Below are positions 3,041-63,988 of a stretch of 64,000 bases of DNA, one piece after another. A program made the translations under genes and the position numbers. Source of the stretch: Methanothermococcus sp. Ax23 (GTDB lineage: Archaea; AGJL01; Methanococci; Methanococcales; Methanococcaceae); assembly GCF_049075655.1 (NCBI RefSeq), contig NZ_CP157522.1, forward strand, positions 448,001 through 512,000, in the 5' to 3' direction. Each line of letters begins with the position of its first letter. Positions within the stretch are counted from its first letter, which is position 1. The notes below the pieces were generated by a model. The model saw only the letters and a program-made list of their open reading frames with translations. It made no database searches and had not been told where the DNA came from.

Positions 3041-5222
3041 TCTCAATAACTATGTAATTGTCTTTACCATTATATCCATTAGATACAGTAGTGATATTCT
3101 GGTTTGCTACTGTGAAGGTGCAATTTGCCCATACAACAGGCACATCGTTAAATGTGAAGTTATATGTATTAGTGCTCCAATATTGCCCTGGATTAATAAG
3201 TGTAGATGGTGTGAATGAATAATTACTACCATTAATTAACAAAGCCATGTTAAATGGATCAACAAGTGTAGGATCACTTCCATTTATTGCCCATAGATTC
3301 ATTTTTGTTAAATTAAATGCATAAGTTCTTGCAGTGTTATTAAATGAAGCCTCTTCATGCCATATATTGTATTCACCACTAGATTCATTTTTATAAGGTC
3401 CTTTTTTAGTTGCACTGATTTCCCCCATTCCTGCTGCATAGACTCCATTTATTTTAGTTCCACTCCTTGTGCCCTTAAAGTTATATTTCAAAGTTGCAAA
3501 ACCATAATTAACTAATATCGCATTCCTATTTTTACCCGAAAAATTACCTTGAACTGTGAATCTTAAAAATCCATTATTTGTAGAATTTAATGATATTCCT
3601 GACCAATTCAAAGCATTATTGGAATCCCCACTGAAATATGGTCCATCCCATAACTCTACCAACCCCCGATTTTCGCTATAGGATGAGATATTTAAAAATG
3701 TCCAATTAACATTCCCATGATAATTTGGGTCATTACTTAAATATTTTGTTAAATCCAACGATATTGTAGAGGGCGTGTTATTATTTGTCAAAGTCATATT
3801 TACAGTCCAATTGGATAATCTGTTTGATGGAATCTTAGTTGCATCATATGTTTCATTTATTAAAATTGGACTACCTAATGACTTATCCAAACTAATTTCA
3901 TATTTTACATAGGAATTATTGGGCAACATGGGGATGTGTATATATGTGTTTGCTGAGTTGTCTAATCCTGTGTATGCTGGCGCTGAACTCTCAATGAATA
4001 TATCTTTTGGTGTTCCATCATGAATGAGTCTTAATTCTGAAATATTATTTGATATGTTTATTGCAATCCATACATCACTTAATGTATCTTCGGTGTAATT
4101 TGCAGAGTTATTTATTATTAAGTATCCTGTAATGTTGTGTATGGTGTAATAAGTATTGCCATCACCACTTACATTTGCTGAAACATTGTAATCCTCAAGG
4201 TAAAATACGTTGAGTATGCAATCATATTCAGTGTTAATTACAGTTGCCGTTGGTTCTGATGGAATATAAGGTCTAACCAATATCCAATCCATTTTATATA
4301 TACCAGGGTTTAAAACGGAGATGTGTACCTCAGACCAATCACCTGAATAACCTGGATATGTATTTGACAAAATTGATATATCATTAAAATCCGTGGTTGG
4401 TCTATATATTCCAATATCACCAATTTTTTTATAACCTCCAATGAGATATTCTGAGCTCGTCGTTGGTGGATTGGATCTTCCTCCAGTCATATAGCCAGAT
4501 TGAGAATATATGTTAATATTATTATAGCTGTAATACCAAGCTTCCTTTTTCCAAAATCTCCATTTATATGCATAATAACCTTTATGTAAGGATAGCTGAA
4601 TTCCAGTATCGCTGACATCTACTGGAATTACTGCACTTTCTATTCTAACTTCCTTTGGAAGGTTATTACCTTTTGAAACTAATGAAATTTCATATCCAGT
4701 ACTGTTTATTTCAAGATATCCATTATTTTCAGATATTGTCCCGCTACCTGTTTTATTCCATTTATCCTGCCAATTCCCATCATTAAAATCATCAAAGAAT
4801 AGGAACATACCATTAGGGTTGCTTAGTGAATGCGCAGAAGGATTTCCACTATATATGTATATAGTTTTATTTGAATTAGCTGAAAGATGAGGTATTTTAA
4901 CCCAGATGTTGGCTTTTTTGGAAGATTTATTCCAATACCCAATCCAATACTGTAACTGAGTACTGCCATCTGAATCTATAACCCGTATGTCACTCCCATC
5001 ATTATTGGCATGACTGAAATCAAAGGAGTTATTATCTAACCTTATCAATACAGAATAATTGTTCAAATCCTGTACTGACGTTATATTTACAGTAGCCCTA
5101 TATGGAAATTCAGTATTCCACCAGCTATCTCCCATATCTCCCGCATAATTGGTATTTAGTACAATAACAACCATAAGCGACAGTATTACCAATATAAATT
5201 TCATATTCATATATATCACCAA
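2457..5222 (-). CDS. Cell-surface glycoprotein with N-terminal DUF2341-like and probable lectin-like region, shared paralog core and C-terminal membrane anchor
   Basis: WWN..YR...DFSHANNDGSDIRV..YWI..W...IWVK.P...IYIYSGNP...FFDDF pattern; many N-x-S/T sequons; hydrophobic then basic C-terminus. Confidence 0.85.
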   Translation of the reverse strand: MVIYMNMKFILVILSLMVVIVLNTNYAGDMGDSWWNTEFPYRATVNITSVQDLNNYSVLIRLDNNSFDFSHANNDGSDIRVIDSDGSTQLQYWIGYWNKSSKKANIWVKIPHLSANSNKTIYIYSGNPSAHSLSNPNGMFLFFDDFNDGNWQDKWNKTGSGTISENNGYLEINSTGYEISLVSKGNNLPKEVRIESAVIPVDVSDTGIQLSLHKGYYAYKWRFWKKEAWYYSYNNINIYSQSGYMTGGRSNPPTTSSEYLIGGYKKIGDIGIYRPTTDFNDISILSNTYPGYSGDWSEVHISVLNPGIYKMDWILVRPYIPSEPTATVINTEYDCILNVFYLEDYNVSANVSGDGNTYYTIHNITGYLIINNSANYTEDTLSDVWIAINISNNISELRLIHDGTPKDIFIESSAPAYTGLDNSANTYIHIPMLPNNSYVKYEISLDKSLGSPILINETYDATKIPSNRLSNWTVNMTLTNNNTPSTISLDLTKYLSNDPNYHGNVNWTFLNISSYSENRGLVELWDGPYFSGDSNNALNWSGISLNSTNNGFLRFTVQGNFSGKNRNAILVNYGFATLKYNFKGTRSGTKINGVYAAGMGEISATKKGPYKNESSGEYNIWHEEASFNNTARTYAFNLTKMNLWAINGSDPTLVDPFNMALLINGSNYSFTPSTLINPGQYWSTNTYNFTFNDVPVVWANCTFTVANQNITTVSNGYNGKDNYIVIEKIYVVGSYLIKATKHVIPNADGTYDVYIVVENIGAEKSPYVYAYDLIPRNFNASNMWVNRSDMLAQHADNDSNNNYTGNKSLSAGDYSLSYLWALNYMNPGADGDGNYSDAAEIDNNQTVVIHYKLNGTGTFRTTDAFLVGIDPRHSLVPSTSPKTVLAGGAVSNNFEPLFALASSVIGTGFVLRRKTKGKDKK

Positions 5223-5441
5223 TATTTAACAAAAAATAAAAATAGATCATGTCTAAAATGTAGGTAATTATGTAGGTAGCTATAAATAAATTGCGATCAT
5301 ATATAAATTTTATAGAACATTTTTTAGATATTAAAAATAGGTAAAATAAAAAGAAAAATTAATCAATATTACTAAAAAAATAAATGGAAAATTTAAATAT
5401 TTAAAAAACTCCAATTATGACAATATTTAAATAATATATTT

Positions 5442-6983: not shown

Positions 6984-8271
6984 CTTCTACAACGATGTAG
7001 GAACTTCCATATTTTGTATCGTAGGTATGAACGGTTCTATTTAATAATGTCATATTTTGGCCTGCAACTGTAAAGGTGCAGTTTGCCCATACAACAGGCA
7101 CATCGTTAAATGTGAAGTTATATGTATTAGTGCTCCAATATTGCCCTGGATTAATAATAGGAAGTGTAGGTGGTGTGAATGAATGATTACTTCCAGCAAT
7201 TAATAGAGAGCTGTTGAATGGATCAACAAGTGTAGGGTCACTTCCATTTATTGCCCATAAATTCATTCTTGTTACATTGAATGCATATTCACTTGCAGTG
7301 TTTTTTATTGTTGCATTTTCATACCATAATGTGTATGTCCCGTCTGTGTTTTTATGAGGACCGTTTTTGACTGCGTTGATTCTTCCCATACCTGTTGCAT
7401 ATATCCCAGATACTTCAGTTCCACTTACAGTTCCACTGTAGCTAAATGTAATCACTGCGAAACCATATTTGAATTTTGTTGGGGTCCTATTTTGGAAAGA
7501 GTTGTTTCCCATTACTTTGAATTCAATTGTTCCAATTTGTGAGCTGTTTAATACCACTCCTGTCCAATTCAATGAATCATTTGCAACCCCTGTGAAGTAT
7601 GGTCCATCCCAGAGTGCTGTAGTACCTTGATTTTTACTGATAACTTCGGATATATTCAATTTATTCCAATATTCACTTCCATAGTTGTTAGAATCATTGC
7701 TTAAATATTTGGTCATATTTACATGAACCACAGTATTTGGATTTGGTAAAGCTGATGTATTCCTACTTATGTTCATGTATATAGTCCAATTAGATTCCTT
7801 TCCTGCTGGAATCTTATCTGCACTATATGCTTCATCCACAAGTATTGGCACTCCAATACCCGGTGCGGATGTATTAATACTAAATGAATACTGTACATAT
7901 GAATTGTTTGGTAGGATTGGTATATGAATATACAAATCTGCACTACTTAACCCGGTGTATGCTGGCGCTGAGCTCTCAATGAATACACCCTTTGGTGTTC
8001 CATCATGAACCAATCTTAATTCAGATATATTGTTAGATACATTTACTGCTACCCATACATCACTCAGAGTATCGGTAATATTCGCTGCTGTGTTGTTAAT
8101 AGTTATATACCCTGTTACATTGTTGATGGAGTAGCTCGTTGAGCCGTCTCCACTAACATTTGCAGATACATTGTATTTTTCTGTGTAATCTACATATAAA
8201 GGGTTTGCAGAAACAGCAGCTATCATCCCGAACACAATCAATAGTCCGAGAACTGTTAGCATTTTTCTCAT
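6403..8271 (-). CDS. Cell-surface glycoprotein, paralog of 2457..5222 lacking the DUF2341 region
   Basis: Signal peptide (..AAVSA), Asn/Ser/Thr-rich, near-identical C-terminal ~190 aa; GAGGGA RBS. Confidence 0.88.
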   Translation of the reverse strand: MRKMLTVLGLLIVFGMIAAVSANPLYVDYTEKYNVSANVSGDGSTSYSINNVTGYITINNTAANITDTLSDVWVAVNVSNNISELRLVHDGTPKGVFIESSAPAYTGLSSADLYIHIPILPNNSYVQYSFSINTSAPGIGVPILVDEAYSADKIPAGKESNWTIYMNISRNTSALPNPNTVVHVNMTKYLSNDSNNYGSEYWNKLNISEVISKNQGTTALWDGPYFTGVANDSLNWTGVVLNSSQIGTIEFKVMGNNSFQNRTPTKFKYGFAVITFSYSGTVSGTEVSGIYATGMGRINAVKNGPHKNTDGTYTLWYENATIKNTASEYAFNVTRMNLWAINGSDPTLVDPFNSSLLIAGSNHSFTPPTLPIINPGQYWSTNTYNFTFNDVPVVWANCTFTVAGQNMTLLNRTVHTYDTKYGSSYIVVEEIYVVGSYLIKATKHVIPNADGTYDVYIVVENIGAEKSPYVYAYDLIPRNFNASNMWVNRSDMLAQHADNDSNNNYTGNKSLSGDYSLSYWWALNYMNPGADGDGNYSDAAEIDNNQTVVIHYKLNGTGTFRTTDAFLVGIDPRHSLVPSTSPKTVLAGGAVSNNFEPLFALASSVIGTGFVLRRKTKGKDKK

Positions 8272-8455: not shown

Positions 8456-8760
8456 GGATACTGCATTATATGGGGAATATTGTCGATTTACCGCCTGCTA
8501 TATTGGTTAATACCTCACCATCAGTTATGTCAGAGATACACTAGTACTATCCAAGAGACCCCCTGCCTTGCAATACGAGCTCATCATCTTAGTGTGCAGA
8601 TACTTCTAAGTGCGAGCTCACCTCACATAGTATGAAACATTGGCTTGATAACATTTAATTTACTGGCAGGCACAATGGGCTCCCCCGCCCGGTAAGAATA
8701 CCTCACTGCATTTTTAGCTCAGTATCCCAGGTTTAATTATGTATTTTTTAATATTATACG
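8456..8760 (-). ncRNA. Putative large structured RNA (cis-regulatory leader or stand-alone ncRNA)
   Basis: GC-rich island without a long ORF; nested complementarities (GGATACTG/CAGTATCC, TTACCG/CGGTAA, CCTGC/GCAGG, GAGCTC-CTTAG hairpin); TATA box at 8790-8783. Confidence 0.62.
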
Positions 8761-13352: not shown

Positions 13353-13964
13353 TTATGACTTAATTTTTGATTTTAGGACGTTTAAATTTTCCAGAACTAT
13401 CTTATTGACTTCTTCATATATGCTCTTTCCATTTGCATCCATTGCAACCATCAATGGTCCAAAATCCTTAACTTCGAGCTCCCATATTGCCTCGGGCATT
13501 CCGAGCTCAGGGTGATGAACATTTTTTACTTCAACTATGGAATTTGCAAGTAATGCCGCACACCCGCCAGGTGCTGCAAGATAAACTACGCCATGTTCTT
13601 TAAAAATATCTAACAACTCTGTTTTCATCCCTCCCTTCCCTACTATTGCTGATATTCCGGTTATTTTAATGAATTCTGCTTCTACCTCGTTCATCCTTGC
13701 CGATGTTGTCGGACCTATTGCCACGCATTTCCATTTATTATTTTCTTTTTTCATAATAGGTCCTGCATGATATATTACCCCATTTTTCAATTTTTTTACG
13801 ATATTATCGTCATCATTATTCTCCTCAGCATTCTGCATGTTTTCCTCTATGATGGTTATATGTGCTTCATCCCTGCCAGTATATACCGTCCCATTTAAAT
13901 AAACTATATCTCCGACCTTTAATTTCTTTATAGTATTCTTTGAAATAGGGGTTTCCAATCTCAA
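13353..13964 (-). CDS. Fe-S hydro-lyase beta subunit (fumarate hydratase class I / tartrate dehydratase family)
   Basis: LKVGDIVYLNG.VYTGRDEAH, HAGP, GPTTSARM, GKGGM, LGMPEAIW motifs; TTG start. Confidence 0.92.
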   Translation of the reverse strand: MRLETPISKNTIKKLKVGDIVYLNGTVYTGRDEAHITIIEENMQNAEENNDDDNIVKKLKNGVIYHAGPIMKKENNKWKCVAIGPTTSARMNEVEAEFIKITGISAIVGKGGMKTELLDIFKEHGVVYLAAPGGCAALLANSIVEVKNVHHPELGMPEAIWELEVKDFGPLMVAMDANGKSIYEEVNKIVLENLNVLKSKIKS

Positions 13965-14726: not shown

Positions 14727-15701
14727 ATGATAACGCGACCAAGAAGATTAAGGGCAAATCAGAAAATAAGGGACCTAGTTAGAGAAACCACCTTAACGAA
14801 AAATGATTTAATAATGCCACTATTTATTGATGAAAACCTAAATGCAGGAGATAAAAAAGAAATTCCTTCAATGCCAAATCAATATAGATTTAGTATAGAT
14901 GGAGTTGTTGAAGAGTGTAAGGAGATGGCAGATTTAGGCATTCCTGCGGTAATACTTTTTGGAATTCCAAAATATAAAGATGAAGTTGCCTCTTCCGCAT
15001 ACGATAAAAATGGAGTAATTCAAACATCCATAAGAAAGATAAAGGATGAGCTCGGAGATGAGCTCCTTGTTATAGCGGATACCTGTTTGTGTGAATACAC
15101 ATCCCATGGACATTGTGGGATAATTGAAAATAATAAGGTTTTGAATGACGAAACCCTTGAAATACTTTCAAAAATAGCTCTATCCTATGCTGAAAGCGGA
15201 GTTGATATTGTTGCCCCCTCAGATATGATGGATGGAAGAGTTGGAAAAATAAGGGAAATCCTGGAAGAAAATAATTATAAGGATGTAGCAATTATGAGCT
15301 ACGCCGCAAAATATGCATCCTCATTTTACGGACCATTTAGGGATGCTGCAGAGAGCTCTCCAAAATCATCCATAAAAGATAGAAAAACATATCAGATGGA
15401 TTATGGAAATTCAAGGGAAGCCCTGAGAGAAATTGAATTAGACATAAAAGAAGGGGCAGATATGATACTCGTTAAACCTGCACTTCCATATTTGGATATT
15501 TTAAAAATGGCTAAGGAGAACTTCAACATACCAATTGGTGGATACTGCGTAAGTGGGGAATATTCTATGATTGAAGCTGCTGCTCAAAAGGGATGGTTAA
15601 ATAGAAAGGAAGCAATTATGGAAACTCTATTGAGTATAAAAAGGGCAGGAGCAGATTTTATAATTACATATTGGGCAAAAGAAGTTGCGGAATATCTTTA
15701 A
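14727..15701 (+). CDS. hemB: Porphobilinogen synthase (ALA dehydratase)
   Basis: [49 protein letters not shown]. Confidence 0.98.
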
Positions 15702-18718: not shown

Positions 18719-18837
18719 ACTTTCACATGCATGTTAAAAATACCGGATAAATATAAATCGTTAGTAAAATGTTTAGAAACGGAGCTCCCATAGGGAAGCT
18801 GTGTAATGTATATAGTATATAAAAAATATAAATATAT

Positions 18838-19824: not shown

Positions 19825-20037
19825 AATTTCACCTGTAATAATTTTTTATAAATATAATATTTATATGTTATATATATAATGCATATATCAATTTTAAAAA
19901 ATTTATATATCAGTGTGTTATTTAAGAAGTTTAAAGTTAATCGGAGCTCGGAATAATATCGCATTACTATATATTTAAAAAAGAATATTCACCTGTTAAG
20001 TGGAAAAAATAAAATTTTTATTTATTTTATTATTTAA

Positions 20038-28045: not shown

Positions 28046-29212
28046 ATGACCATGAATGAAAAAGAGGTTTTGGATGCATTAAAAAAATATCGGGAAATGG
28101 ATTTAAAATATGAGGACGGCAGAATATTAGGTTCCATGTGCACAAAACCCCACCCCATTTCAAAAAAAATAAGTGAAATGTTCTTTGAAACTAATTTAGG
28201 AGACCCTGGGCTATTCAAAGGAACAAAAAAATTAGAGGACGAAGTAATACAAATGATGGGGAATTTTTTAAATAACAACAATCCATTTGGATATATAATA
28301 TCCGGTGGAACAGAGGCAAATATCACCGCCATGAGAACCATAAAAAATATTTCAAGAAAAAAAGGCAATAAAACCACTACGGTAATAATTCCTGAAACTG
28401 CACACTTTTCATTTGAAAAAGCAAGAGAAATGATGGATTTACAGTATATAAAGCCCCCATTGACCGATTACTATACAATGGATGTAAAATATATTAAAGA
28501 TTACATTGAAGATAATAAAAACAATAAAATAGATGCAATAGTTGGTATAGCAGGATGCACAGAACTGGGAACCATTGATAACATAAAGGCAATTTCAAAA
28601 CTGGCTGAGGAAAATAGCATATATCTTCATGTAGATGCCGCATTTGGTGGTTTTGTAATACCGTTTTTAGAGGATAAATATAAATTAAACAATTATAACT
28701 ATGAATTCGATTTTTCATTAAATGCCGTATCATCCATTACAATAGACCCACACAAAATGGGACTTGCACCAATTCCTGCTGGTGGGATACTATTTAGGGA
28801 CATTTCATTTAAAAAATATTTAGATGTTGAAGCGCCCTATTTAACGGATATTCATCAGGCAACACTAATTGGAACAAGAACAGGTATTGGCGTGGCATCC
28901 ACATGGGGCGTAATGAAACTTTTAGGGGAAGAAGGATATAAAAACATAGTATCCGAATGTATGGATAAAACCTATTACTTAATAAAAAAAGCAAAGGAGT
29001 ATGGATTTAAACCTGTAATAGACCCCGTTCTTAATATTGTGGCTTTGGAGGATGAAAATCCATCAGAAACATGTTTAAAACTTCGTGAAATAGGATGGTA
29101 TGTATCAATATGCAAATGTGTAGGAGCTCTCAGAATAATAGTGATGCCACATATAGAAAAAGAACATATTGATGAATTTGTAGAAGCTCTCGCGAGCGTT
29201 AAAAAGAATTAA
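28046..29212 (+). CDS. mfnA: L-tyrosine/L-aspartate decarboxylase (PLP)
   Basis: [39 protein letters not shown]. Confidence 0.95.
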
Positions 29213-29262
29213 TAAAAAAATTAAAATTAAAAAAATAATTTTTTTATTACTTATTATTTAAT

Positions 29263-29745
29263 TTATTCATTAAAGTATTCGTCGTATTCTCCGTTATCGA
29301 TTAATTTATGAACTTCCTTAGGGTCTTTACCATCAACAGTTACACCCAATGAAACACAGGTTCCAATTACTTCTTTTGCAGCATTTTTCAAGTTGTATGA
29401 TAACATTGATTCTCTTTTCATTTTTGCAATTTTCACTGCCTGCTCCATTGAGAGGTTGCCTACTATTTTATGTTTTGGTTCTGTTGAACCCTTGTCAAGC
29501 CCTAATTCTTTTTTTATGAGGGCTGATGTTGGTGGAATACCCACTTCTACTTCAAAGGATTTATCATCTGTATTTACAATTACTTTTACTGGAACGCTCA
29601 TTCCTTCATAATCCTTTGTTTTGTCGTTTATTTCCTTAACAACATTCATAATATTTACGCCAAGCGGTCCGATTGCTGGACCTAATGGTGGCCCTGCTGT
29701 TGCTTTTCCACCAGTTACTAATATCTCAACTATCTCAGTAGCCAT
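29263..29745 (-). CDS. rpl11: 50S ribosomal protein L11
   Basis: [18 protein letters not shown]; GAGGTGA RBS before MATE. Confidence 0.98.
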
Positions 29746-29937
29746 TATATTCACCTCAATTTACATCGTGTTTATAAATTAAAACTTACATATTTAACTT
29801 TTTAATCTTATTGTCCATATCTGTATTTAAAACTTACTATGTATCTTTTAAAAAAAGATGCAATTATAAATAAATAATTACTAAATGATGATTACATTAA
29901 GGAGGGAATCATATATGATAATTTTTATGTGTTATAT

Positions 29938-30378
29938 TTAATGATTCTTAGATACAATTTTAACCTGTTCAATTCCAACAGTTATAGGAATAGGCACTGC
30001 GGCGTCCATTAACTCCAATGTTATTTCTTCTTTATGCTTATCTACTCTTGTGACTCTCGCCCTCTCTCCCTTAAATGGTCCTGCAACCAATTCTACTACA
30101 TCTCCCTTATCGATGCTTTCTATTATCTTTGTTGGAGCCAGTAGATGTTCCAATTCATCTATTGAAGTTTCACCAGGGACGATACCCTTTACTTTAAATG
30201 TTTTTCTTACCAAATCTTCAACTGCTCCTTTGTTTGGGGCTTCCACAAGAATATACCCCTTTAAATCTTCTGTTGCTAGTATAGAATATATTTCAATCTT
30301 TTCTTTTTCAGCCTTTGAGGCTAAAAACTCTGCAACATTTTTTTCTTGACCCGTAGTGGTTCTAACGGCAAAAATCAT
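29938..30378 (-). CDS. spt5: Transcription elongation factor Spt5 (NusG family)
   Basis: IFAVRTTTGQE, LKGYILVEA, KOW motif GDVVELVAGPFKG. Confidence 0.97.
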   Translation of the reverse strand: MIFAVRTTTGQEKNVAEFLASKAEKEKIEIYSILATEDLKGYILVEAPNKGAVEDLVRKTFKVKGIVPGETSIDELEHLLAPTKIIESIDKGDVVELVAGPFKGERARVTRVDKHKEEITLELMDAAVPIPITVGIEQVKIVSKNH

Positions 30379-30406
30379 AATATATCACCAGATTAAATGA
30401 TAAAAA

Positions 30407-30456
30407 TTAGACGAAAACCTTCGGTTTTCGTTTACTCGCTTATTTCGTAAGCGATT
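30407..30456 (+). repeat. Double-hairpin mini-element, family A
   Basis: TTAGACGAAAACC-TTC-GGTTTTCGTTTAC-TCGCTTAT-TTC-GTAAGCGA-TT. Confidence 0.85.
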
Positions 30457-30583
30457 AGAATAAAAACTTTTAAAATAGAATTAAAAAATCTTTAAAATAA
30501 ATAGTTGTTAATTATATATAATTTAATTTATTAAAAGAATCTATAAAATTTTATTAAAAAATGTTTGATATATTATATATATC

Positions 30584-30835
30584 TTATGGTTTTATGAGTC
30601 CTTTTAAATAAGTAATTGGTACATGTATTACAAAACCGATAGCACCAAGAAGGCATATTCCAAGACCTGTAACTTTGGATACATTCAAAAATTCATCCCT
30701 AGTAGGTTTTCTTGAAATCATCAACACTCGTTTACATTGATTTAAAAATGATTTCAATTCATCAAATTTAGCATTTATTTTTGCATTATTGATGTTATTA
30801 ATATTATTATTAGAATTTTTTTTCTCTTTTGCCAC
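30584..30835 (-). CDS. secE: Protein translocase subunit SecE (Sec61 gamma)
   Basis: KRVLMISRKPTRDEF..VSKVTGLG; conserved ftsZ-secE-spt5-rpl11 order. Confidence 0.95.
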   Translation of the reverse strand: MAKEKKNSNNNINNINNAKINAKFDELKSFLNQCKRVLMISRKPTRDEFLNVSKVTGLGICLLGAIGFVIHVPITYLKGLIKP

Positions 30836-30855
30836 GATACCCCTCTATATATTAA

Positions 30856-31947
30856 TTAAATTGTTGGAAGGTCAATAAACACTTTCTTAGTGCCCTTTGG
30901 AGAATTAAATGGAGTTATTCCAGAAGACTTCGTTCCGGTAATTATCAGCAATACTCTCAATACGTTCTCAGAATTTTCGTCAATTGTTGTTCCCCAAATT
31001 ATTTTTGCATTCTCATCCAATCTTTCTGAAACTGTTGAAACTATTTCTTTTGCTTCTTCAAGACTCATATCCTCAGGACCAGTTATATGCACTAATGCAC
31101 CAGAAGCCCCATCTACATCAACACATAGTAAAGGACTATTTAAAGCCATGTTTATAGCTTCTTTCGCCCTCTTCTCAGAATCACTTTCGCCAATTCCCAT
31201 CATTGCTATACCGCCATTGCTCATTACTGCCCTCACATCTGCGAAATCTACGTGTATGTCTCCAACATTCTGAACTAAATCTATCATTCCCTTTACCGAA
31301 TTTATTAAAACCTCATCTGCAACTTTAAACGCTGTCCTCAAAGGCATATTCGGAACTATCTCCAATAATTTATCATTTGGAATAATCACAATTGTGTCTG
31401 CTGCTTCTTTCAATTTATTCAGTCCAGTAATTGCATTATCCATCCTAACTTTTCCTTCCATTGAAAACGGCAGTGTAACTACTGCAACAGTTAATGCACC
31501 CATTTTTCTAGATATTTCTGCCACAATTGGGGCTGAACCAGTTCCTGTTCCTCCACCTAAACCGCATGTGATGAATACCATATCCGAATCTTGAAGTGCT
31601 TTTTTAACATCCTCAGCATTCTCTTTTGCGGATTCCTCACCCTTAGTTGGGTCTCCACCAGCACCCAATCCTCTTGTAAGATTTTTACCTATCAATACCT
31701 TTTCATCCGCTTTGGTTTTTATCAACTGCTGAGCATCAGTATTTATTGCTACGGTTTTTGCATCTTTGATTCCTTCAATTGTAAGCCTGTTTATAGCATT
31801 ATTTCCTGCACCGCCGCATCCTACTACGGTAATCCGAACTTTTGATTCTTTTATCAACTCCAAAAGTTCTCTATCAACATCGGAGAGATTCTGCATATCT
31901 TCATGCAATGGATCATCTTCAACCACTATATTCTTTAAGAATTTCAA
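30856..31947 (-). CDS. ftsZ: Cell division protein FtsZ
   Basis: VVGCGGAGNN, GLGGGTGTG tubulin signature; TTG start after GGAGGT. Confidence 0.98.
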   Translation of the reverse strand: MKFLKNIVVEDDPLHEDMQNLSDVDRELLELIKESKVRITVVGCGGAGNNAINRLTIEGIKDAKTVAINTDAQQLIKTKADEKVLIGKNLTRGLGAGGDPTKGEESAKENAEDVKKALQDSDMVFITCGLGGGTGTGSAPIVAEISRKMGALTVAVVTLPFSMEGKVRMDNAITGLNKLKEAADTIVIIPNDKLLEIVPNMPLRTAFKVADEVLINSVKGMIDLVQNVGDIHVDFADVRAVMSNGGIAMMGIGESDSEKRAKEAINMALNSPLLCVDVDGASGALVHITGPEDMSLEEAKEIVSTVSERLDENAKIIWGTTIDENSENVLRVLLIITGTKSSGITPFNSPKGTKKVFIDLPTI

Positions 31948-32214
31948 AGTATTACCTCCTAATGGTTATAACCTTATATACTTGATAATTATATTATGAC
32001 CATATCTTTAAGTAATTCATTAATTAAATAATTATAATATAAATAGGTATATTATTAATATAAATTAATATAATTAAGATATATACAAATAATAAATAAA
32101 CCAATCATTTTATTTTTAAGTTTATGATAATATAATAGACATATTAAATTTATAATTTACGATTTAATTATTATGTGTAATGGAATACACATTATTAAAC
32201 TTAACGGTGAAACT

Positions 32215-33312
32215 ATGATATCATCAAAAGCAAGAGAAGACGCTAAGAAAAAGATTATTGATGTTGCAAACCATATGTACGACTGTGTTCTTAACGGCAA
32301 AAGACCAAAACTTAAATTTCCAGTTAGAAGTTTAGCAAATGCTAAGTTTGACCGGGAAAGGGGAACATTCGTATTGATGGGCAAGGAAAAAGAGAGAACC
32401 TTAACAGTTAATCAGGCTAAAATATTTGCACAAACTGTAAAAATGATGGAATTTTCAAAAGATTTACTTGATACAAATGATTTTTCAACACTGAGGGAAG
32501 CATATTACGTTTCAAAAAACTGGGGAGAAGCAAGATTTGATGACCAGCAACCTTCAAATAGTGTCATAGAAGACCTTGAAGCTGCTTTGGACTTTTTGAG
32601 GGAAGAACTTGGATTCATACCTGAAGAAGATGGTTCTTCTGTTGTTGGACCTCTTAAAATCGTAGATAAGTCCCCCGAAGGTGAAGAATTAAAGATAGAT
32701 TGTGAAAAATTAGGAAGTGGTGCCTATAACATCCCAAACGACATTACAAGATTGGAATTTGAAACAGATGCAGATTTCATATTAGCAATAGAAACAGCAG
32801 GTATGTTTGCAAGATTGAATGCTGAAAAATTCTGGAAAAAACATAATTGCATTTTAGCATCCTTAAAAGGTGTTCCAGCAAGGGCTACGAGAAGATTTAT
32901 AAAAAGATTAAATGAAGAACATGGACTCCCTGTTTTAGTATTTACAGACGGTGACCCTTATGGATATCTTAACATTTACAGGACATTAAAGGTAGGAAGT
33001 GGTAAAGCTGTTCATTTGGCTGAGAAACTTGCAATTCCTGCGGCAAGATTGATTGGTGTTACTCCTCAGGATATTTTAGATTATGACTTACCAACTCATC
33101 CTTTGAAAGACCACGACCTTAAAAGATTGAAAGACGGTCTAAAAAACGATGATTTTGTAAAAAGCTTCCCTGAATGGCAGAAGGCATTGAATCAGATGCT
33201 TGAAATGAAGCAGAGGGCAGAACAGCAATCTTTGGCAAAATACGGTTTAAAGTATGTTGTTGAGGAGTATCTTCCAGCAAAGATTGAGGATAAGAGCACA
33301 TGGTTGCCTTAA
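32215..33312 (+). CDS. top6A: DNA topoisomerase VI subunit A
   Basis: STLREAYY, TOPRIM AIET.G, FTDGDPYG, AEQQ; start chosen after GGTGA RBS. Confidence 0.96.
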   Translation: MISSKAREDAKKKIIDVANHMYDCVLNGKRPKLKFPVRSLANAKFDRERGTFVLMGKEKERTLTVNQAKIFAQTVKMMEFSKDLLDTNDFSTLREAYYVSKNWGEARFDDQQPSNSVIEDLEAALDFLREELGFIPEEDGSSVVGPLKIVDKSPEGEELKIDCEKLGSGAYNIPNDITRLEFETDADFILAIETAGMFARLNAEKFWKKHNCILASLKGVPARATRRFIKRLNEEHGLPVLVFTDGDPYGYLNIYRTLKVGSGKAVHLAEKLAIPAARLIGVTPQDILDYDLPTHPLKDHDLKRLKDGLKNDDFVKSFPEWQKALNQMLEMKQRAEQQSLAKYGLKYVVEEYLPAKIEDKSTWLP

Positions 33313-33413
33313 TAATAACTATTAAATATTAAATAATATAATTTTTATTTTTAATAATATTATATCATAACATATATTCATGTTATTTTGATTTTTTTAA
33401 ATTAGGGGAAAAT

Positions 33414-42593: not shown

Positions 42594-44228
42594 ATGGCAG
42601 CAGGTCAGCCAGTAGTTGTATTACCAGAAAATGTAAAAAGATACATGGGAAGAGATGCTCAGAGAATGAACATATTAGCAGGAAGAATCATTGCTGAAAC
42701 CGTAAGATCCACATTGGGACCAAAGGGAATGGACAAAATGTTAGTTGATGATTTGGGGGACATTGTTGTTACAAACGATGGTGTAACAATCTTAAAAGAA
42801 ATGAGTGTAGAACACCCAGCTGCAAAAATGTTAATCGAAGTTGCAAAAACCCAAGAAAAAGAAGTTGGGGATGGAACAACAACAGCTGTTGTTATATCTG
42901 GTGAATTATTAAGAAAAGCTGAAGAATTACTTGACCAGAATGTTCATCCAACAATCGTTATCAAAGGATACCAGTTAGCACTTGAAAAAGTTCAGGAAAT
43001 ATTAAAAGACATTGCTATTGAAGTAAAAGCTGACGACAAAGAAATGTTAAAGAAAATAGCAATGACATCAATCACAGGAAAAGGTGCTGAAAAAGCTAAG
43101 GAAAAATTGGGGGACATAATTGTTGAAGCTGTATCAACAGTTGTTGATGAAAACGGTAAAATCGATAAAGATTTAATAAAAGTAGAGAAGAAAGAAGGAA
43201 CATCCGTTGATGAAACAGAATTAATCAGAGGAGTATTAATCGATAAGGAAAGAGTAAATCCACAGATGCCTAAGAAGGTAGAAAATGCAAAAATTGCATT
43301 GTTGAACTGCCCAATTGAAGTTAAAGAAACAGAAACAGATGCTAAAATAAGCATAACAGACCCTGCAAAGATGATGGAATTCATCGAACAGGAAGAAAAG
43401 ATGTTAAAAGACATGGTTGATGAAATAAAAGCATCTGGTGCAAATGTTGTATTCTGTCAGAAAGGAATTGATGACTTAGCTCAGCACTACCTTGCAAAAG
43501 CAGGAATCCTTGCAGTAAGAAGAGTTAAAAAATCAGACATAGAAAAACTTTCAAAAGCAACAGGAGCAAACATTATTACAAACATAAAAGACTTAACAGC
43601 AGACGACTTAGGAGAAGCTGGACTTGTATCAGAAGAGAAAGTTGCTGGCGACGCAATGATATTCGTTAAAGAATGCAAGCATCCAAAAGCAGTAACAATC
43701 TTAGTAAGAGGAACAACAGAACATGTTGTAGATGAAGTAGCAAGAGCTATCGATGACGCAATAGGCGTTGTAGCATGCACCATAGAAGATGGTAAAATCG
43801 TTGCTGGTGGTGGAGCAGCAGAAGTAGAATTAGCTATGAGATTAAGAGACTACGCAGACACAGTAAGCGGAAGAGAACAGTTAGCAGTTAGAGGATTTGC
43901 TGACGCATTAGAAGTAATCCCAAGAACATTGGCAGAAAATGCTGGTTTAGATGCTATCGAAATGCTCGTAAATCTCAGAGCTAAACATGCAACAGATGGA
44001 AGCTCAACATATGGATTAAATGTATTCACAGGCGAAGTTGAAGACATGGCTGAAAATGGAGTTGTTGAACCATTGAGAGTTAAAACACAAGCTATCCAGT
44101 CAGCTACTGAATCAGCAGAAATGTTATTAAGAATAGACGATGTAATCGCAGCTGAAAAATTGAGCGGTGGAGCTGGCGGAGATGCTGGTGACATGGGCGG
44201 AATGGGAGGTATGGGCGGAATGATGTAA
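42594..44228 (+). CDS. ths: Thermosome (group II chaperonin)
   Basis: [33 protein letters not shown] tail. Confidence 0.98.
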
Positions 44229-52460: not shown

Positions 52461-52462
52461 AA

Positions 52463-52609: not shown

Positions 52610-53803
52610 CTACCACAAATTTCCATCTAAGTGGCTTTTTATTTTATCGTTGGTTGAATTATACATTCTTCCTATTTTAACTTTATGTATTCCATTTTCT
52701 AGTTTTTGTTTTTCTTTTATTGTATATGCAATATGGAGTTTTTTCAAATATACTAAAAATTCATTTAAATCCTCTTCACTATCTAAATATATCTCAAAAT
52801 CTTCTGTAATCAATTCACCTTTTGAAATATTTTTTATAGTATCTACCATTGGATAAAGTATTGATTTTCCTATGTTTTTTGCTCTTTCCTCCATTTCTTT
52901 TTCGTCTTCATTGAATTCAAATGACTGATATCCCTCCCTAACTAATCTGCTGAACATAAAATCAATACCTAAATCATATACATACCTAAATGCCACAGAT
53001 AAATCATTGCACTGGGTGTAGTGAGTGGTGTATTTTATAGGGTTTATTAACATGCCAGGGTCTTTTAAAACTACACCTTCCCTTTTTTCTTCATTTAGCT
53101 TTAATATTACCTTCTTTATGTGCTCAACATCCTCTTTATTAAATACTCCAATAGGTTTCACATAGGGGAGCTCATATTTTTGTAGGAGCTCCTCCTTTTC
53201 CTTTATTGAAAGTGGCTTATTTGTTTCCCTATGTCTTACATCAAATATATAAAACCCTAAATTTTCGATAATATTATTTTTATTATTGCCATTGTTCTTA
53301 ATTAGTATATTATCAACTTCTGGATAATAATGAGGAACATAGGGATTGTTTAATCCTATCATCTCACCACAAAGCATTAAATCAGGATAATCGTCCAATA
53401 TATTCGTATTTAAAAACTTTAATGCTTTTTTTGTCGTGAATGGACAAATTCGCCCTCCTCGTGTAATTGCCACCACTTCATTATCTACTTTTGCTATCCT
53501 CACATTGTATCCGTCCAGTTTTTCCTCAACAACAATTTTATCAATAAAGTAATTTTTTAATGTGGGATAAAGCATCATTGCACGCCTTATTTTTGGATAG
53601 CCCATTACAATATCCATATTATTATTTAAAAATAAAACCGTCCCCCTCTCAATATGTCTAAGCTTCTTTTTAAATAAAAGGTATTTTTTATTATTGTGCT
53701 CATCAAAAGAAATTATTTTTCTTTCAAATGCCTTTTTTATATCAGCTTCATCTAATTTCAACCTTTCCGAGACCTTTAAAATATCAATATCCATAAAAAT
53801 CAC
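52610..53803 (-). CDS. ATP-dependent RNA ligase, Rnl3 (Pab1020-type) family
   Basis: ERGTV, GYPKIRR, motif I EEKLDGYNVR, TRGG.ICPFTT, REGVVLKD, FMFSRLVREG. Confidence 0.92.
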   Translation of the reverse strand: MIFMDIDILKVSERLKLDEADIKKAFERKIISFDEHNNKKYLLFKKKLRHIERGTVLFLNNNMDIVMGYPKIRRAMMLYPTLKNYFIDKIVVEEKLDGYNVRIAKVDNEVVAITRGGRICPFTTKKALKFLNTNILDDYPDLMLCGEMIGLNNPYVPHYYPEVDNILIKNNGNNKNNIIENLGFYIFDVRHRETNKPLSIKEKEELLQKYELPYVKPIGVFNKEDVEHIKKVILKLNEEKREGVVLKDPGMLINPIKYTTHYTQCNDLSVAFRYVYDLGIDFMFSRLVREGYQSFEFNEDEKEMEERAKNIGKSILYPMVDTIKNISKGELITEDFEIYLDSEEDLNEFLVYLKKLHIAYTIKEKQKLENGIHKVKIGRMYNSTNDKIKSHLDGNLW

Positions 53804-56087: not shown

Positions 56088-57016
56088 TAGTGTGGGTCAT
56101 ATTACACTCTAACCTCTAATACCTTCATATAAGGATAACCTCTGGTAATGAGATTATATAGTGCTAAAACCTGTGCAGAAACTACTGCACAGAGACAGAA
56201 TACTTTTTTACGAATATAACCTTTGATATTAATCCAAAACTTATTCATAAATCGGTTCTTTAATATTGAATTGGTGTGCTCTATTTTAACTCTTATCTTA
56301 GAAACTTCCGAAGGAAGTTTCTTTTTATTTTTCCTACCCAATCTCCGTGGATTATGTGCTGTTATTAGTTCATTTTTGTATAATTCTATCGCTTTTTTTT
56401 AAATCTTTTGAATCATAGCCTGCATCTGCACAGGACTTTTTGGTAGGTACTAATAATTTATCAGCTACTTTACAATCGTGAGTATTTGCTGTGGTAAATT
56501 CTGCTCTTAATGGTATTCCTAACTTATCTACTGCTAAATGTAATTTAAAGCCTTTAAACATTCCTACACTGTTATATCCTATCTTTCCCTCAATATCTGT
56601 TTCGTCTTTTATTGGAGTGCTATCGTATATTGACCATTCAGGATTATTTAGTTCAATATATTTATCACCTAATAAAGTAATTATTGCATGCAATTCTTCA
56701 TCTAGGGATTTTTTCCATCTATCGATGGTTCTTCTACCAGGGCAGGATTTAAATCCTAATGCAGTTAAAATCTGTGGATTATTTTGTAAGTGTAATACTA
56801 ACGCTCTATTTGAATGTATGCCTTTTAAAAAGGCATACACTAATAGTTTAAGCCTCAACTCTAAATTATATCCTTTTCTCCCTACCTTTCTTCGTTTAGG
56901 GATTCGGTCAATTAAATCTGATGTAATTATCTCATTTACCACTTCCTCAGCCTTCATATTATCGTCTTTTTTATAATATTATATTTAGTATAGGTTATAT
57001 ATTTTGACCCATACTA
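56088..57016 (-). mobile_element. 929-bp insertion sequence with DDE transposase (IS4/IS5-like fold, family not assigned), 12-bp TIRs, 14-bp target duplication
   Basis: TIRs TAGTGTGGGTCA (56088-56099) and TGACCCATACTA (57005-57016); direct repeat GGATTCATTTATAT at 56074-56087 and 57017-57030. Confidence 0.93.
56102..56957 (-). pseudogene. DDE transposase split by a one-base frameshift in an A8 run
   Basis: YDST, GFKLH, ADAGYDS in the first frame; R..IE in the second; removing one A at 56393-56400 joins them (DLKKAIELYKNELITAHNPRR). Confidence 0.8.
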
Positions 57017-60916: not shown

Positions 60917-61059
60917 ACTTACACCAAAAAATATAATAATTAACTGAATTTATCTGATTTCAGCTATTTAATATTTTTCCAGATGTTAATCTTCCTAAAA
61001 TAATATATATTAATAAATATATACCTTATTGCTGTAAAATAAGTAGAAAATGGCTGAGA

Positions 61060-61251: not shown

Positions 61252-61258
61252 GGAGAGA

Positions 61259-61525: not shown

Positions 61526-61642
61526 GTTCAATATAATTAATAGTACATTATTTAGTGCCAACATCATATAAATATAATAATACTTTTTTGATTCAGATGA
61601 AATAAAAACTTAAACTTTAACTGAAGATTTTTTGGTGGTATT

Positions 61643-62137: not shown

Positions 62138-62206
62138 AAAGAAAATAGATAAAAAATAAAATAAAAAGTAAAAAAATAAAAAACAAATAAATATAATGGT
62201 GATTTA

Positions 62207-63988
62207 ATGGCAGATAGATTGGCTATTTTGGATTATGATAGGTGTCAGCCGAGAAGATGTTCAATGGAATGTATAAAATACTGCCCCGGAGTTAGAATGG
62301 GGGAAGAAACCATTGTTATGGATGAAGACATTGGAAAACCGATAATTTCAGAAGAATTATGTAGCGGATGCGGAATATGTGTAAAAAGATGCCCCTTTGA
62401 AGCTATTGCAATCATAGGTCTTCCAGAAGAGCTCACCGAAGATAAGATAGTTCATTCCTATGGTAAAAATAGGTTTAGGTTATACGGTTTAATAGCTCCA
62501 AGAGAAGGAGTAGTTGGTATATTAGGACCAAACGGTGTTGGTAAATCCACAATATTGGCAATATTAAGCGGAGCTCTCATACCAAATTTAAACAATATCG
62601 ATGAAGAACCAAATTATGACAAGGTAATAAAACACTTCTCAGGAACCGAGCTCCAAAAATATTTTGAAAATTTAAAAAATGGAAATATTAAACCTGTCCA
62701 TAAACCACAGTATATTGATGCTCTCCCAAAGGTTGTAAAGGGAACAGTTGGAGAGTTGTTAAAAAAGGTGGATGAGAAGGGACTATTTGATGAAATAGTA
62801 GATACTTTGGAAATAAAAAACATACTTGATAGAACCTTCGACCAATTGAGTGGAGGTGAGCTCCAAAGAGTGGCAATTGCCGCGGCATGTTTAAGGGAAG
62901 GGGATATTTATTACTTCGATGAACCATCATCATGGCTTGATGTAAGGCAGAGATTCAATGCTGCAAAGGTGATTAGAAAAATATCAGAAGAGGGCAAAAA
63001 GGTTGTTGCAGTAGAACACGATTTAATAGTTTTGGATTATCTCTCCGACCATATACATATTATGTATGGTATTCCTTCTGCCTATGGGGTTGTAACTCAC
63101 CCAAGAGGAACAAGGGTTGGAATAAATACATACTTAAATGGTTTTCTAAGGGAGGAGAATATAAGATTTAGAAAAAATCCAATAGTATTCGAAAAAAGAC
63201 CGCCAGCAAATTATTCAAATAGACCGTTGCTTTTGGAGTATTCAAAGGTTTCAAAAACCCTTGGCAATTTCAACCTGTCCGTTGATGGTGGAACAATACA
63301 CAGGGGAGAAGTAATAGGTATATTGGGACCAAATGGTATAGGTAAAACAACATTTGTAAAAATACTCGCTGGAATTGTTAAACCTGATGAAGGTAGTGTT
63401 TCAAGTGAAGATGTAAAGGTATCATACAAACCTCAGTATATTTCCTCAGATTACGATGGAACTGTTAGAGACCTTTTAATGAGTATAGCGAATATAAACA
63501 CATCATTCTATAAATCTGAGATAATAAAGCCGTTGAGCTTGGAAAAAATAATGGACTTTGATGTGAAAGACCTCTCTGGTGGTGAGCTCCAAAGAGTGGC
63601 AATTGCCGCATGTTTGAGTAGGGATGCAGATATATATTTAATAGATGAGCCATCGGCATTTTTAGATGTGGAGCAGAGGTTAAATGTATCAAGAACAATA
63701 AGAAGAATGGCGGATGAAAAGGATGCGGCAATGTTTGTAGTGGACCATGATATATTATTCCAAGATTATATCTCTGATAGATTTGTCGTATTCAGCGGTG
63801 AAGCTGGTAAAATTGGAAAAGGCTCTTCACCATTGGATAAAAGAAGCGGCGCAAATAAGTTTTTAAAAGAGATGAATATAACATTTAGAAGAGACCCCGA
63901 CACAGGAAGACCAAGAGTAAATAAAGAGGGAAGTCAGAGGGATTTATACCAGAAGGAAATTGGGGAATATTACTATGTGGATGAGTGA
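62207..63988 (+). CDS. rli: Ribosome recycling ATPase ABCE1/RLI
   Basis: N-terminal Fe-S Cys motifs, two ABC domains (GPNG.GK, LSGGELQR), FRRDPDTGRPRVNK. Confidence 0.97.
   Translation: MADRLAILDYDRCQPRRCSMECIKYCPGVRMGEETIVMDEDIGKPIISEELCSGCGICVKRCPFEAIAIIGLPEELTEDKIVHSYGKNRFRLYGLIAPREGVVGILGPNGVGKSTILAILSGALIPNLNNIDEEPNYDKVIKHFSGTELQKYFENLKNGNIKPVHKPQYIDALPKVVKGTVGELLKKVDEKGLFDEIVDTLEIKNILDRTFDQLSGGELQRVAIAAACLREGDIYYFDEPSSWLDVRQRFNAAKVIRKISEEGKKVVAVEHDLIVLDYLSDHIHIMYGIPSAYGVVTHPRGTRVGINTYLNGFLREENIRFRKNPIVFEKRPPANYSNRPLLLEYSKVSKTLGNFNLSVDGGTIHRGEVIGILGPNGIGKTTFVKILAGIVKPDEGSVSSEDVKVSYKPQYISSDYDGTVRDLLMSIANINTSFYKSEIIKPLSLEKIMDFDVKDLSGGELQRVAIAACLSRDADIYLIDEPSAFLDVEQRLNVSRTIRRMADEKDAAMFVVDHDILFQDYISDRFVVFSGEAGKIGKGSSPLDKRSGANKFLKEMNITFRRDPDTGRPRVNKEGSQRDLYQKEIGEYYYVDE

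Follow-up and report, generated by a model that had tools for sequence, protein, structure and literature searches.

Why should a single six-base palindrome, GAGCTC, recur about once per kilobase across a 64-kb stretch of the chromosome of an archaeon of the order Methanococcales? The stretch, referred to here as the window, comprises positions 448001-512000 of contig C1 in the genome designated G000 (G000:C1:448001-512000); other G numbers denote Methanococcales relatives of G000. Within the window GAGCTC occurs 68 times (~1.1 per kb), while 100 dinucleotide-preserving shuffles of the same DNA contained on average 4.66 copies (s.d. 1.95, maximum 10), and none of the 100 attained 68. An earlier inspection of the window (the original prediction) had counted 68 copies by hand against an expectation of four to five, and proposed an analogy with HIP1, the highly iterated palindrome of cyanobacteria. 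That count is exact, every coordinate given with it is a real site, and the shuffle mean agrees with the expectation. The sites are as follows.

Window 4453..63589, no strand: 68 GAGCTC sites, starting at 4453, 5607, 7970, 8577, 8614, 9001, 9897, 10930, 12085, 13476, 13503, 15048, 15060, 15353, 17177, 17522, 17644, 18782, 19170, 19944, 20583, 23473, 24004, 24216, 24963, 25422, 26107, 26621, 26835, 27715, 29124, 33825, 34735, 36565, 37936, 38429, 38903, 38946, 40608, 41418, 42229, 45020, 47011, 47755, 48051, 48219, 48505, 49874, 50233, 50616, 51180, 51715, 53168, 53186, 54044, 55143, 58595, 59341, 59650, 60023, 60317, 60596, 61736, 62429, 62571, 62648, 62858 and 63584

A genome-wide palindrome enriched at the level of DNA

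The excess is not confined to the window, the outcome that would have told against the original prediction, but extends throughout the genome. The two contigs of G000 (1,662,948 and 7,732 bp, 1,670,680 bp in total; 31.9% GC) carry 2,089 GAGCTC sites, 2,085 on the chromosome and four on the 7.7-kb second contig, equivalent to 1.25 per kb or approximately one per 0.8 kb. The ratio of observed to expected copies (O/E) is 16.8 from base composition, 19.7 under a first-order and 13.1 under a second-order Markov model. GAGCTC is by far the top hexamer of the genome, and the runners-up, AGCTCC and GGAGCT at 7.8, are pieces of the extended site. It makes up 41% of all AGCT in G000; the fifteen other NAGCTN words have an O/E of 0.3-1.3 by base composition, such that AGCT is unenriched outside GAGCTC, and none of the 18 one-mismatch neighbours of the word is enriched (O/E 0.04-1.21). 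Beyond 3 bp on either side of the sites the sequence returns to background composition, which indicates that there is no dispersed repeat unit, and the same pattern is present in five independent assemblies. Nothing was found in favour of either a dispersed repeat family or an assembly artefact, and both readings are effectively refuted.

It could be argued that the word is a by-product of translation or of peptide sequence, reflecting a preference for the codon pair GAG-CTC or for one of the peptides Glu-Leu, Gly-Ala-Pro and Ser-Ser. Indeed, frame 0 holds 56% of the coding sites, GAG-CTC encodes 1,101 of the 3,959 Glu-Leu dipeptides of G000 (28% compared with an expected 1.7%), and GAG precedes 38% of all CTC codons. 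It should be emphasized, however, that sites are found in all three frames and between genes, as the original prediction had claimed. By our own crude calls of open reading frames (ORFs; 1,604 of at least 80 amino acids, covering 86.5% of the chromosome), 1,955 chromosomal sites lie inside ORFs, with 1,100, 630 and 225 in frames 0, 1 and 2, respectively, and 130 lie between them. In the window the corresponding numbers are 64 (37, 22 and 5) and four, the intergenic sites being at 8577, 8614, 18782 and 19944, of which the last two had been singled out in the original prediction. Intergenic DNA, with a GC content of 25%, has 0.58 sites per kb, which is ~17-fold above the expectation from its own composition and equal to the factor observed in coding DNA.

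The codon-aware null models lead to the same conclusion. Shuffling synonymous codons within genes (n=30) gave 190 ± 13 sites (maximum 218) and shuffling codon order gave 119 ± 12, compared with 1,956 observed in ORFs. A dicodon-level expectation, even though it includes the dicodons of the sites themselves, predicts 191 sites in frame 1 and 58 in frame 2, where 630 and 225 were observed; for frame 0 the dicodon-preserving null is uninformative by construction. Thus, the excess does not vanish under nulls that preserve codons or dicodons, and the view that protein constraint does not account for the sites is supported by the frames, the intergenic DNA and these nulls alike. In addition, the word is palindromic, and the non-enriched relative G016 encodes the orthologous Glu-Leu positions with alternative codon pairs, at rates that are neutral. 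Glu-Leu dipeptides are moreover in excess (3,959 compared with 3,305 expected; Leu-Glu, 2,924), which indicates that the DNA word shapes peptides and not the reverse. The sites between genes and in several frames thus effectively refute a peptide-level cause, which we regard as hardly credible. GAGCTC is an archaeal HIP-like element: a palindrome that is hyper-abundant throughout the genome and specific to a lineage, and whose excess does not follow from base composition, from coding or from a dispersed repeat.

Distribution and conservation among relatives

Only five of 40 Methanococcales species are enriched in GAGCTC, namely G000 (2,089 sites), G012 (2,070), G010 (1,645), G013 (1,515) and G003 (1,321). 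The remaining 35 carry 4-229 copies, and a pattern search at the level of the phylum returned the same Methanococcales genomes. Judged by EF-2, the closest named relatives of G000 belong to Methanothermococcus (93% identity) and then to Methanocaldococcus (~80%). Metagenomic sequencing runs from vents and the subsurface also contain the window. A phylogeny of this one gene in 30 genomes, from which G003 was left out as the gene is missing from its assembly, arranges G012, G000, G010 and G013 as a grade, with the non-enriched G014/G016/G018 subclade nested beside G013. Sister to all of these is the G002/G007/G008 clade, in which there are 16, 4 and 9 copies, respectively; support at the key nodes is 82/87 and 80/93. 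Median protein identities, which are 88.9% for G000-G012, 79.2% for G000-G013, 76.7% for G000-G010, 67.1% for G000-G016 and 76.1% for G013-G016, agree with the order of the tree.

Some relatives avoid the word. G002 (16 copies), G005 (14), G007 (4), G008 (9) and G015 (26) contain only 0.09-0.23 as many GAGCTC as GACCTC, a word of the same composition, while in G000 GAGCTC is ~19 times as frequent as GACCTC. This avoidance suggests that restriction directed at GAGCTC is in circulation in genomes closely related to the enriched ones. In G016, by contrast with the enriched genomes, the O/E of GAGCTC is 0.78 and no other word is hyper-abundant, the top hexamer, CTGCAG (573 copies), being only 4.2-fold over-represented. 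CTGCAG is itself among the hexamers avoided in G000 (18 copies), together with GTGCAC (7), GTCGAC (4) and CTCGAG (8). As the genomes are relatives, the pattern represents few events and no statistics across genomes are claimed. In the simplest history that the sequences suggest, the enrichment would have arisen once and been lost once, the latter in the G016-type subclade, while other lineages actively purged the word.

To what extent are individual sites conserved? Reciprocal-best-hit ORFs from the complete chromosome of G016 and from portions of G012 (400 kb), G010 (400 kb) and G013 (100 kb) were aligned with those of G000 codon by codon. The neutral expectation for a Glu-Leu site is the product of GAG retention and CTC retention outside sites (0.49 x 0.33 for G012).

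G000 and G012: 293 gene pairs; four-fold identity 0.69; sites in common 309/403; Glu-Leu sites kept 182/208 (87.5%); neutral expectation 16%
G000 and G010: 327 gene pairs; four-fold identity 0.51; sites in common 124/461; Glu-Leu sites kept 71/197 (36%); neutral expectation 3.4%
G000 and G013: 79 gene pairs; four-fold identity 0.50; sites in common 27/103; Glu-Leu sites kept 11/44 (25%); neutral expectation 5.4%
G000 and G016: 1,107 gene pairs; four-fold identity 0.435; sites in common 29/1,514; Glu-Leu sites kept 9/442 (2.0%); neutral expectation 1.8%

G000 sites are kept in G012, G010 and G013 far more often than neutrality predicts but show neutral decay in G016, which is a natural control; this contrast indicates that the sites have been maintained over most of the history of these lineages. 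Only 20 of the 368 Glu-Leu positions that lack a site in G000 have one in G012, and in the small sample of intergenic sites 8 of 12 were kept, compared with 0.42 expected from flank identity. Window sites were kept at 49 of the 58 positions alignable to the G012 sample and at 9 of the 29 alignable to that of G010. Where a site differs between G000 and G012 by a single step, the change is most often a transition in the central GC (GAACTC, 13; GAGTTC, 8). Of the 65 aligned sites in G016, 29 match a G000 site in position, and decay has left a modest footprint, CTN being used for leucine at 64.5% of former site positions and at 52.5% elsewhere. These data also bear on the view that the word is a relic no longer maintained. 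No gene that maintains it was found, as a relic would predict; the contrast between retention in three genomes and decay in the fourth, however, speaks for upkeep over most of that history. Relic, dispersed repeat and assembly artefact, taken together, are very improbable.

Rates of gain and loss were estimated from G000 and G012 with a stationary two-state model restricted to conserved Glu-Leu positions. The site frequency at these positions is 0.356, compared with a neutral 0.0072 (odds ratio 76). Gains occur at 5.6 times the neutral rate (95% bootstrap confidence interval 3.8-7.8) and losses at 0.074 times (0.05-0.10), which is ~14 times slower. As gains are raised, protection of existing sites from mutation is insufficient to explain the data. 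A fixation-bias model in which S = ln(76) = 4.3 predicts that gains should be 4.4 times and losses 0.057 times neutral.

The recognized element appears to be wider than the hexamer. Intergenic sites of G000 prefer G or T at position -1 (G, 0.35 there and 0.12 in the background) and, at -2, either A or C, and the preference is mirrored 3' of the site; this points to an element of more than 6 bp that is independent of coding. The share of GAGCTC sites that lie in the full octamer GGAGCTCC differs between genomes:

G010: GGAGCTCC 1,259 of 1,645 GAGCTC (77%; O/E ~350)
G000: 333 of 2,089 (16%)
G012: 335 of 2,070 (16%)
G003: 184 of 1,321 (14%)
G013: 191 of 1,515 (13%)

At the 124 orthologous sites common to G000 and G010 the octamer is present in G010 alone 29 times and in G000 alone once. 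Comparison of the sequences thus indicates a drift of specificity among lineages, the 6-bp word of G000, G012, G003 and G013 giving way to the 8-bp GGAGCTCC in G010. Codons touched by G010 octamers show 63% amino-acid identity to G000, compared with a background of 76%, which indicates that the pressure overrides some protein constraint; the commonest peptide encoded at these octamers is Gly-Ala-Pro.

Placement along the chromosome and candidate driver genes

The spacing of sites in G000 is close to random, with a coefficient of variation of 1.09 and a median of 532 bp (an exponential distribution would give 553 bp); bins of 20 kb contain on average 24.8 sites, with a variance of 34.8. Pairs 20-50 bp apart are mildly over-represented (117, ~75 expected). 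Sites are spread evenly along genes save in the first decile (133, compared with ~200 per decile), a dip that may reflect over-long ORF starts in our own calls. This distribution is relevant to the proposal, made by Xu et al. for HIP1, that such words are selected directly for a chromosomal function, each copy conferring a small benefit as the site of a nucleoid-associated or chromosome-organizing protein. Weak selection of this kind accounts no less well for the positional conservation and the S of ~4 per site. A palindromic word is well suited to binding by a dimer, the intergenic flank preference and the G010 dialect suggest a binder that co-evolves with the word, and the function has been argued for HIP1 from conservation and periodicity (PMC5861425, excerpt). 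The spacing, near random by the two measures above, however, lacks the regularity expected if sites had to cover the chromosome, and no candidate protein was found. Furthermore, the subclade of G014, G016, G018 and relatives lost the sites without acquiring a replacement word and the sister clade purged them, which argues that they are dispensable. A direct chromosomal function thus appears rather unlikely.

A clearer pattern separates resident from mobile DNA. Core genes, defined by a reciprocal best hit in G016, contain 1.51 sites per kb, and 60 of the 492 that are at least 900 bp long lack a site; ORFs without a G016 match contain 0.89 per kb, and 35 of 79 of that length lack one. The 42 multi-copy ORFs resembling insertion sequences (IS), spanning 26.1 kb, contain no sites, and thus the absence from IS copies reported by the original prediction for the window holds genome-wide. 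These IS-like families comprise at least 42 ORFs in G000, with 3-10 copies at no less than 80% identity, and some are 85-88% identical to copies in G012 or G010. Several of the largest site-free stretches have a low GC content (0.26-0.28), and one carries a Type III restriction-modification (R-M) locus. Site density is independent of protein conservation (rho 0.003). Hence the thermosome gene does lack a site, as had been claimed, but this is not significant, and the site-free L11, FtsZ and topoisomerase VI subunit A (Topo VI-A) genes are equally unremarkable. The GAACTC at 3985 and GAGCTC at 7970 that had been offered as a contrast between paralogues were confirmed. Eleven of the 68 window sites are the full octamer GGAGCTCC. 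Features of the window that illustrate these points are listed below.

18782..18787, no strand: intergenic site by the ORF calls, full octamer GGAGCTCC
19944..19949, no strand: intergenic site by the ORF calls, context GGAGCTCG
8577..8619, no strand: two intergenic sites by the ORF calls, 37 bp apart, each in the context CGAGCTCA
13476..13508: frame-0 (Glu-Leu) pair, 27 bp apart in one ORF, both kept in G012
15048..15065: frame-0 pair, 12 bp apart, both kept in G012
53168..53191: frame-0 pair, 18 bp apart, both kept in G012; the second, a full octamer, is also present in G010
7970..7975: GAGCTC in one paralogue; the other has GAACTC at 3985-3990, with similar flanks
56370..56957, minus strand: IS transposase copy (DDE_Tnp_1/DUF772), one of eight in the genome, without a site
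42594..44228, plus strand: thermosome gene (Cpn60_TCP1), without a site
29130..33824: 4.7 kb devoid of sites, the longest such interval in the window (genome gap 477124-481825), with the L11, FtsZ and Topo VI-A genes

At the start of the window an IS-like ORF (-304 to 283) is without a site. The adjoining ORFs at 841-2253 and 440-838, on the minus strand and of 470 and 132 amino acids, are also site-free and have no Pfam match; they may have been acquired recently.

Does a methylase act on the word? In a methylation-linked function of the HIP1 or Dam type, an orphan methyltransferase would modify GAGCTC for repair, replication or self-marking. Palindromes of 6-8 bp are typical Type II targets, avoidance of the word by the sister clade suggests GAGCTC-specific restriction in the group, and the prevalence of central-GC transitions between G000 and G012 is consistent with such modification. 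Two adjacent ORFs at G000:C1:107879-110394 (341 and 497 amino acids) could also be invoked; these paralogues have an N-terminal SPPY motif, which is typical of amino-methyltransferases, but no PF01555 match, and they have homologues in G016. A further argument is the analogy with the HIP1 methylases DmtA and DmtC (PMC13756078, excerpt).

The distribution of methylases, however, does not follow the trait. G000 contains no match to the C5-methylase family PF00145. Its DNA methylases are a 300-residue PF01555 protein (MT-A, G000:C1:1437541-1438443), a Type III Mod, an Eco57I-like protein of 567 amino acids, two Type IIG enzymes and a Type I HsdM, while a weak match to PF02086 (D12 class) is a Trm5/TYW2-type tRNA methyltransferase. 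The enriched genomes G000, G003, G010, G012 and G013 have no DNA methylase of PF01555 or PF02384 in common, these being the families compared (D12, MT-A70 and other families were not searched in the relatives). G012, with its 2,070 sites, has in the three families searched only two Type I-like matches and one plasmid-borne Type IIG N6-methylase match, with no PF01555 DNA methylase, and G010 has a single PF01555 methylase of its own, without a counterpart in G000 or G012. A scan for the motif (D/N/S)PP(Y/F/W/H) revealed no further methylase specific to the enriched genomes. The methylome of Methanococcus aeolicus PL15/Hp, obtained with SMRT (single-molecule, real-time) sequencing, comprises m4C at CTAG, m6A at GTNAC, GCACY and CGAG, and an inferred m5C at ACGT, with nothing reported at GAGCTC (PMC10113651, excerpt), although it is not established that this species is among the enriched genomes, and SMRT misses m5C. 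A methylation-linked function is thus distinctly unlikely, and the methylation-directed repair around an AGCT core that the original prediction had in mind is unsupported, given that there is no C5-methylase in G000, no common methylase in the families compared, no match to Vsr, no depletion of the deamination neighbour GAGTTC/GAACTC and no enrichment of AGCT outside GAGCTC.

The individual methylases of G000 can be dismissed in turn. MT-A and its unannotated 244-residue neighbour are present in five non-enriched genomes of the f2 family but were not found in G010, G012 or G013. The two convergent ORFs (G000:C1:1437541-1439159; L001 4541-6156), of which that encoding MT-A is without GAGCTC, are 68-77% identical to those of the five other-family genomes, are broken by stop codons in G003 and look like a mobile R-M pair. 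For the Eco57I-like methylase the one close match is in G003, for the Type III Mod there is none in the five genomes searched, and the 1,069-residue Type IIG enzyme has matches only in G013 and on the second contig of G012. The SacI endonuclease family (RE_SacI, PF09566) gave no match in 31 genomes, but it also gave none in 14 control genomes and is thus uninformative.

Sequence-specific, biased mismatch repair of the very-short-patch type, acting without DNA exchange, would provide a neutral mutational drive toward GAGCTC. Faster gains and slower losses are what such a process is expected to produce, and polyploidy with gene conversion would supply the heteroduplexes. DUF1643, a member of the uracil-DNA-glycosylase superfamily, is restricted to three of the 40 genomes (G000, G010 and G012), all of them enriched. 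It was not found, however, in G003 or in G013, a 99% complete assembly that maintains its sites. Vsr (PF03852) has no match in any of the 40 genomes, in a search in which the controls matched, and G000 has no C5-methylase. The deamination neighbour GAGTTC/GAACTC, which would be the donor, is not depleted (O/E 0.88-1.22), and neither is any other single neighbour, such that conversion from all 18 would be needed. Little probability can be assigned to this form of repair. In G000 the DUF1643 gene (G000:C1:440395-440994) lies 7 kb upstream of the window and adjoins an IS copy; in G012 and G010 (L266 1396-2007 and L267 1411-2001) it has a conserved context of a riboflavin gene and an HD gene.

None of the other genes considered follows the trait. 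McrBC is present in 11 of 40 genomes, only two of which are enriched; a McrB-like AAA GTPase and McrC form a pair in G000 (G000:C1:1527725-1531046) and G013 (L273 1176-4860), adjoined in the latter by an AlkD-like glycosylase. McrBC of Escherichia coli targets methylated cytosine, and an enzyme that did likewise here would be awkward to reconcile with cytosine methylation of ~2,000 sites. The AlkD-like glycosylase occurs in six of 40 genomes, four of them non-enriched. A profile of gene content identified 298 G000 ORFs without a G016 match and 111 with only a weak match, although filtering was limited to 400 kb of G012, 400 kb of G010 and 100 kb of G013. One cluster, G000_525-538, was rejected as metabolic by eye, containing hybrid-cluster-protein-like and TatD-like genes. 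This cluster (G000:C1:566467-575915) is absent or weak in G016 and has 92-99% protein identity to G010, and several of its genes are nearer to G010 than to the closer relative G012 (96.4% versus 84.8% in one example), which suggests gene transfer between the two enriched lineages.

A possible watermark of self DNA

What, then, maintains the word? We tentatively favour the view that GAGCTC is a watermark of self DNA, read by a protein and maintained by a drive tied to recombination or uptake. A fixation bias that is site-specific and directional and acts on DNA as such would hold the word in place, gains ~5.6 times faster and losses ~14 times slower than neutral giving the ~76-fold odds enrichment at Glu-Leu positions (S ~4 per site). 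The bias would act on long-resident chromosomal and plasmid DNA but not on IS elements, and appears strong enough to change some amino acids. A symmetric, presumably dimeric protein would read the word on double-stranded DNA, and the bias would arise during DNA exchange or recombination, either through preferential uptake or processing of fragments that bear the word or through biased conversion among genome copies. Members of the Methanococcales are highly polyploid with active gene conversion, which makes the latter route equally concrete. The word would thus mark the DNA of self or kin, as the DNA uptake sequences (DUS) and uptake signal sequences (USS) do in bacteria and as has been proposed for HIP1. 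The random scatter, the density of ~1 copy per kb, the accommodation by proteins, the absence from mobile DNA and the shift of dialect match DUS and the proposed role of HIP1 as an uptake watermark, and it is on these grounds that recombination- or uptake-linked drive is favoured. The suggestion that the word is an iterated palindrome like HIP1, present beyond the demands of protein constraint, thus stands, while methylation-directed repair, one of the mechanisms put forward with it, is unsupported. Of the two further roles that the original prediction had named, a signal for uptake or recombination and a chromosome-organizing site, the former is the one tentatively preferred here.

Several considerations weigh against this watermark. 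No reader protein was found, every gene tested for co-distribution having failed, and the phylogenetic profile is incomplete, G016 being the only relative covered whole. The phylogeny is that of one gene, with moderate support at its key nodes. The rate model assumes stationarity and uses conserved Glu-Leu positions only, and estimates from the more distant G010 depart from it (gains 19 times and losses 0.29 times neutral), probably as a result of a saturated neutral estimate. Substitution patterns of the kind seen would, moreover, be fitted alike by per-site selection, biased gene conversion and uptake drive. Known uptake sequences are non-palindromic 9-12-mers, and by comparison a 6-mer would discriminate weakly. 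We take Methanococcus maripaludis to lie in the non-enriched g3 subclade. In the text consulted, natural transformation in the family is described only for that species (PMC10133366, excerpt). A fuller version of the watermark, in which a symmetric reader acts independently of methylation in DNA import or recombination between genome copies, ~2,000 copies are maintained, the word has grown from 6 to 8 bp (GGAGCTCC) in one lineage, and sister lineages from similar habitats made it a restriction target and purged it, is possible but, as a whole, doubtful.

Comparison with characterized systems places GAGCTC between several of them. Hyper-abundant palindromes have been known in cyanobacteria for thirty years and their function is still debated (PMC13756078 and PMC5861425, excerpts). 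HIP1 (GCGATCGC) raises transformation efficiency and has been proposed to be an uptake watermark (PMC13756078, excerpt). Like GAGCTC it is a short, genome-wide palindrome, enriched 15- to 300-fold compared with 17-26-fold for GAGCTC and ~350-fold for the octamer of G010; HIP1 is likewise present between genes as well as in every frame, shows positional conservation beyond neutral, and has variant words in related lineages (PMC5861425 and PMC13756078, excerpts). In contrast to HIP1, GAGCTC belongs to another domain of life and to a very AT-rich genome, and has a core of 6 bp (8 bp in one lineage). No cognate orphan methylase comparable to DmtA and DmtC is common to the enriched genomes in the families searched. 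HIP1 is reported to be periodic (10-90 kb), whereas the spacing of GAGCTC is near random by both of the measures given above. HIP1, further, spans most of a phylum, while GAGCTC is enriched in five of 40 species of an order and is avoided by sister lineages of the enriched ones. The HIP1 word itself is not that of G000, where GATC is nearly absent (157 copies, O/E 0.03), as one of several short palindromes, together with GTAC, CTAG and ACGT, that are strongly avoided.

The accumulation of DUS and USS has been explained by a molecular-drive model. Such sequences, in Neisseriaceae and Pasteurellaceae, respectively, resemble GAGCTC in their density of ~1 copy per kb, their presence in all frames, their accommodation by the proteome, their scarcity in mobile or recent DNA, their lineage dialects and a fixation bias thought to be tied to uptake (PMC3630211, PMC2817400, PMC2397512 and PMC7371117, excerpts). 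They differ in being non-palindromic 9-12-mers with a pilin-type receptor and a measured uptake bias, whereas GAGCTC is a 6-8-bp palindrome known from sequence alone. In E. coli, very-short-patch repair causes over-representation of CCWGG, far below 17-fold. Such repair also entails faster gain and slower loss of a favoured palindrome, but it needs a C5-methylase and Vsr and depletes the T-containing neighbour, and none of these three was seen for GAGCTC. The word, which we take to be the SacI site, is depleted in the five avoiding genomes as expected of restriction-site avoidance; in G000 and its four enriched relatives the sign is reversed. Finally, the Chi and KOPS motifs, which function in recombination and chromosome handling, are over-represented a few fold, asymmetric and strand-skewed, whereas a palindrome cannot carry orientation.

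No report of an over-representation of GAGCTC in archaea was found in the literature searched, which was mostly open access and excluded supplements, and PMC4390886 makes no mention of GAGCTC, archaea or Methanococc- names. Apparently new are a HIP-like element in Archaea, the lack of a common methylase in the families searched, the dialects, and the existence of sister lineages that avoid the word. GAGCTC provides an independent case of a hyper-abundant palindrome in another domain of life, with convenient handles in genomes of ~1.6 Mb, in enriched, decayed and avoiding species within one family, and in a shift of dialect from 6 to 8 bp. The contrast between these species is a natural experiment through which the reader protein might be found and selection separated from drive. 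In practice, enzymes of the SacI type would cut the enriched genomes approximately every 0.8 kb, and the word is a strong marker with which to distinguish resident from recently acquired DNA. If GAGCTC does mark self DNA in exchange, it would be the first uptake or recognition signal to be described from the Archaea, would add an independent second model of HIP-type palindromes, and would bear on gene flow among the methanogens of hydrothermal vents.

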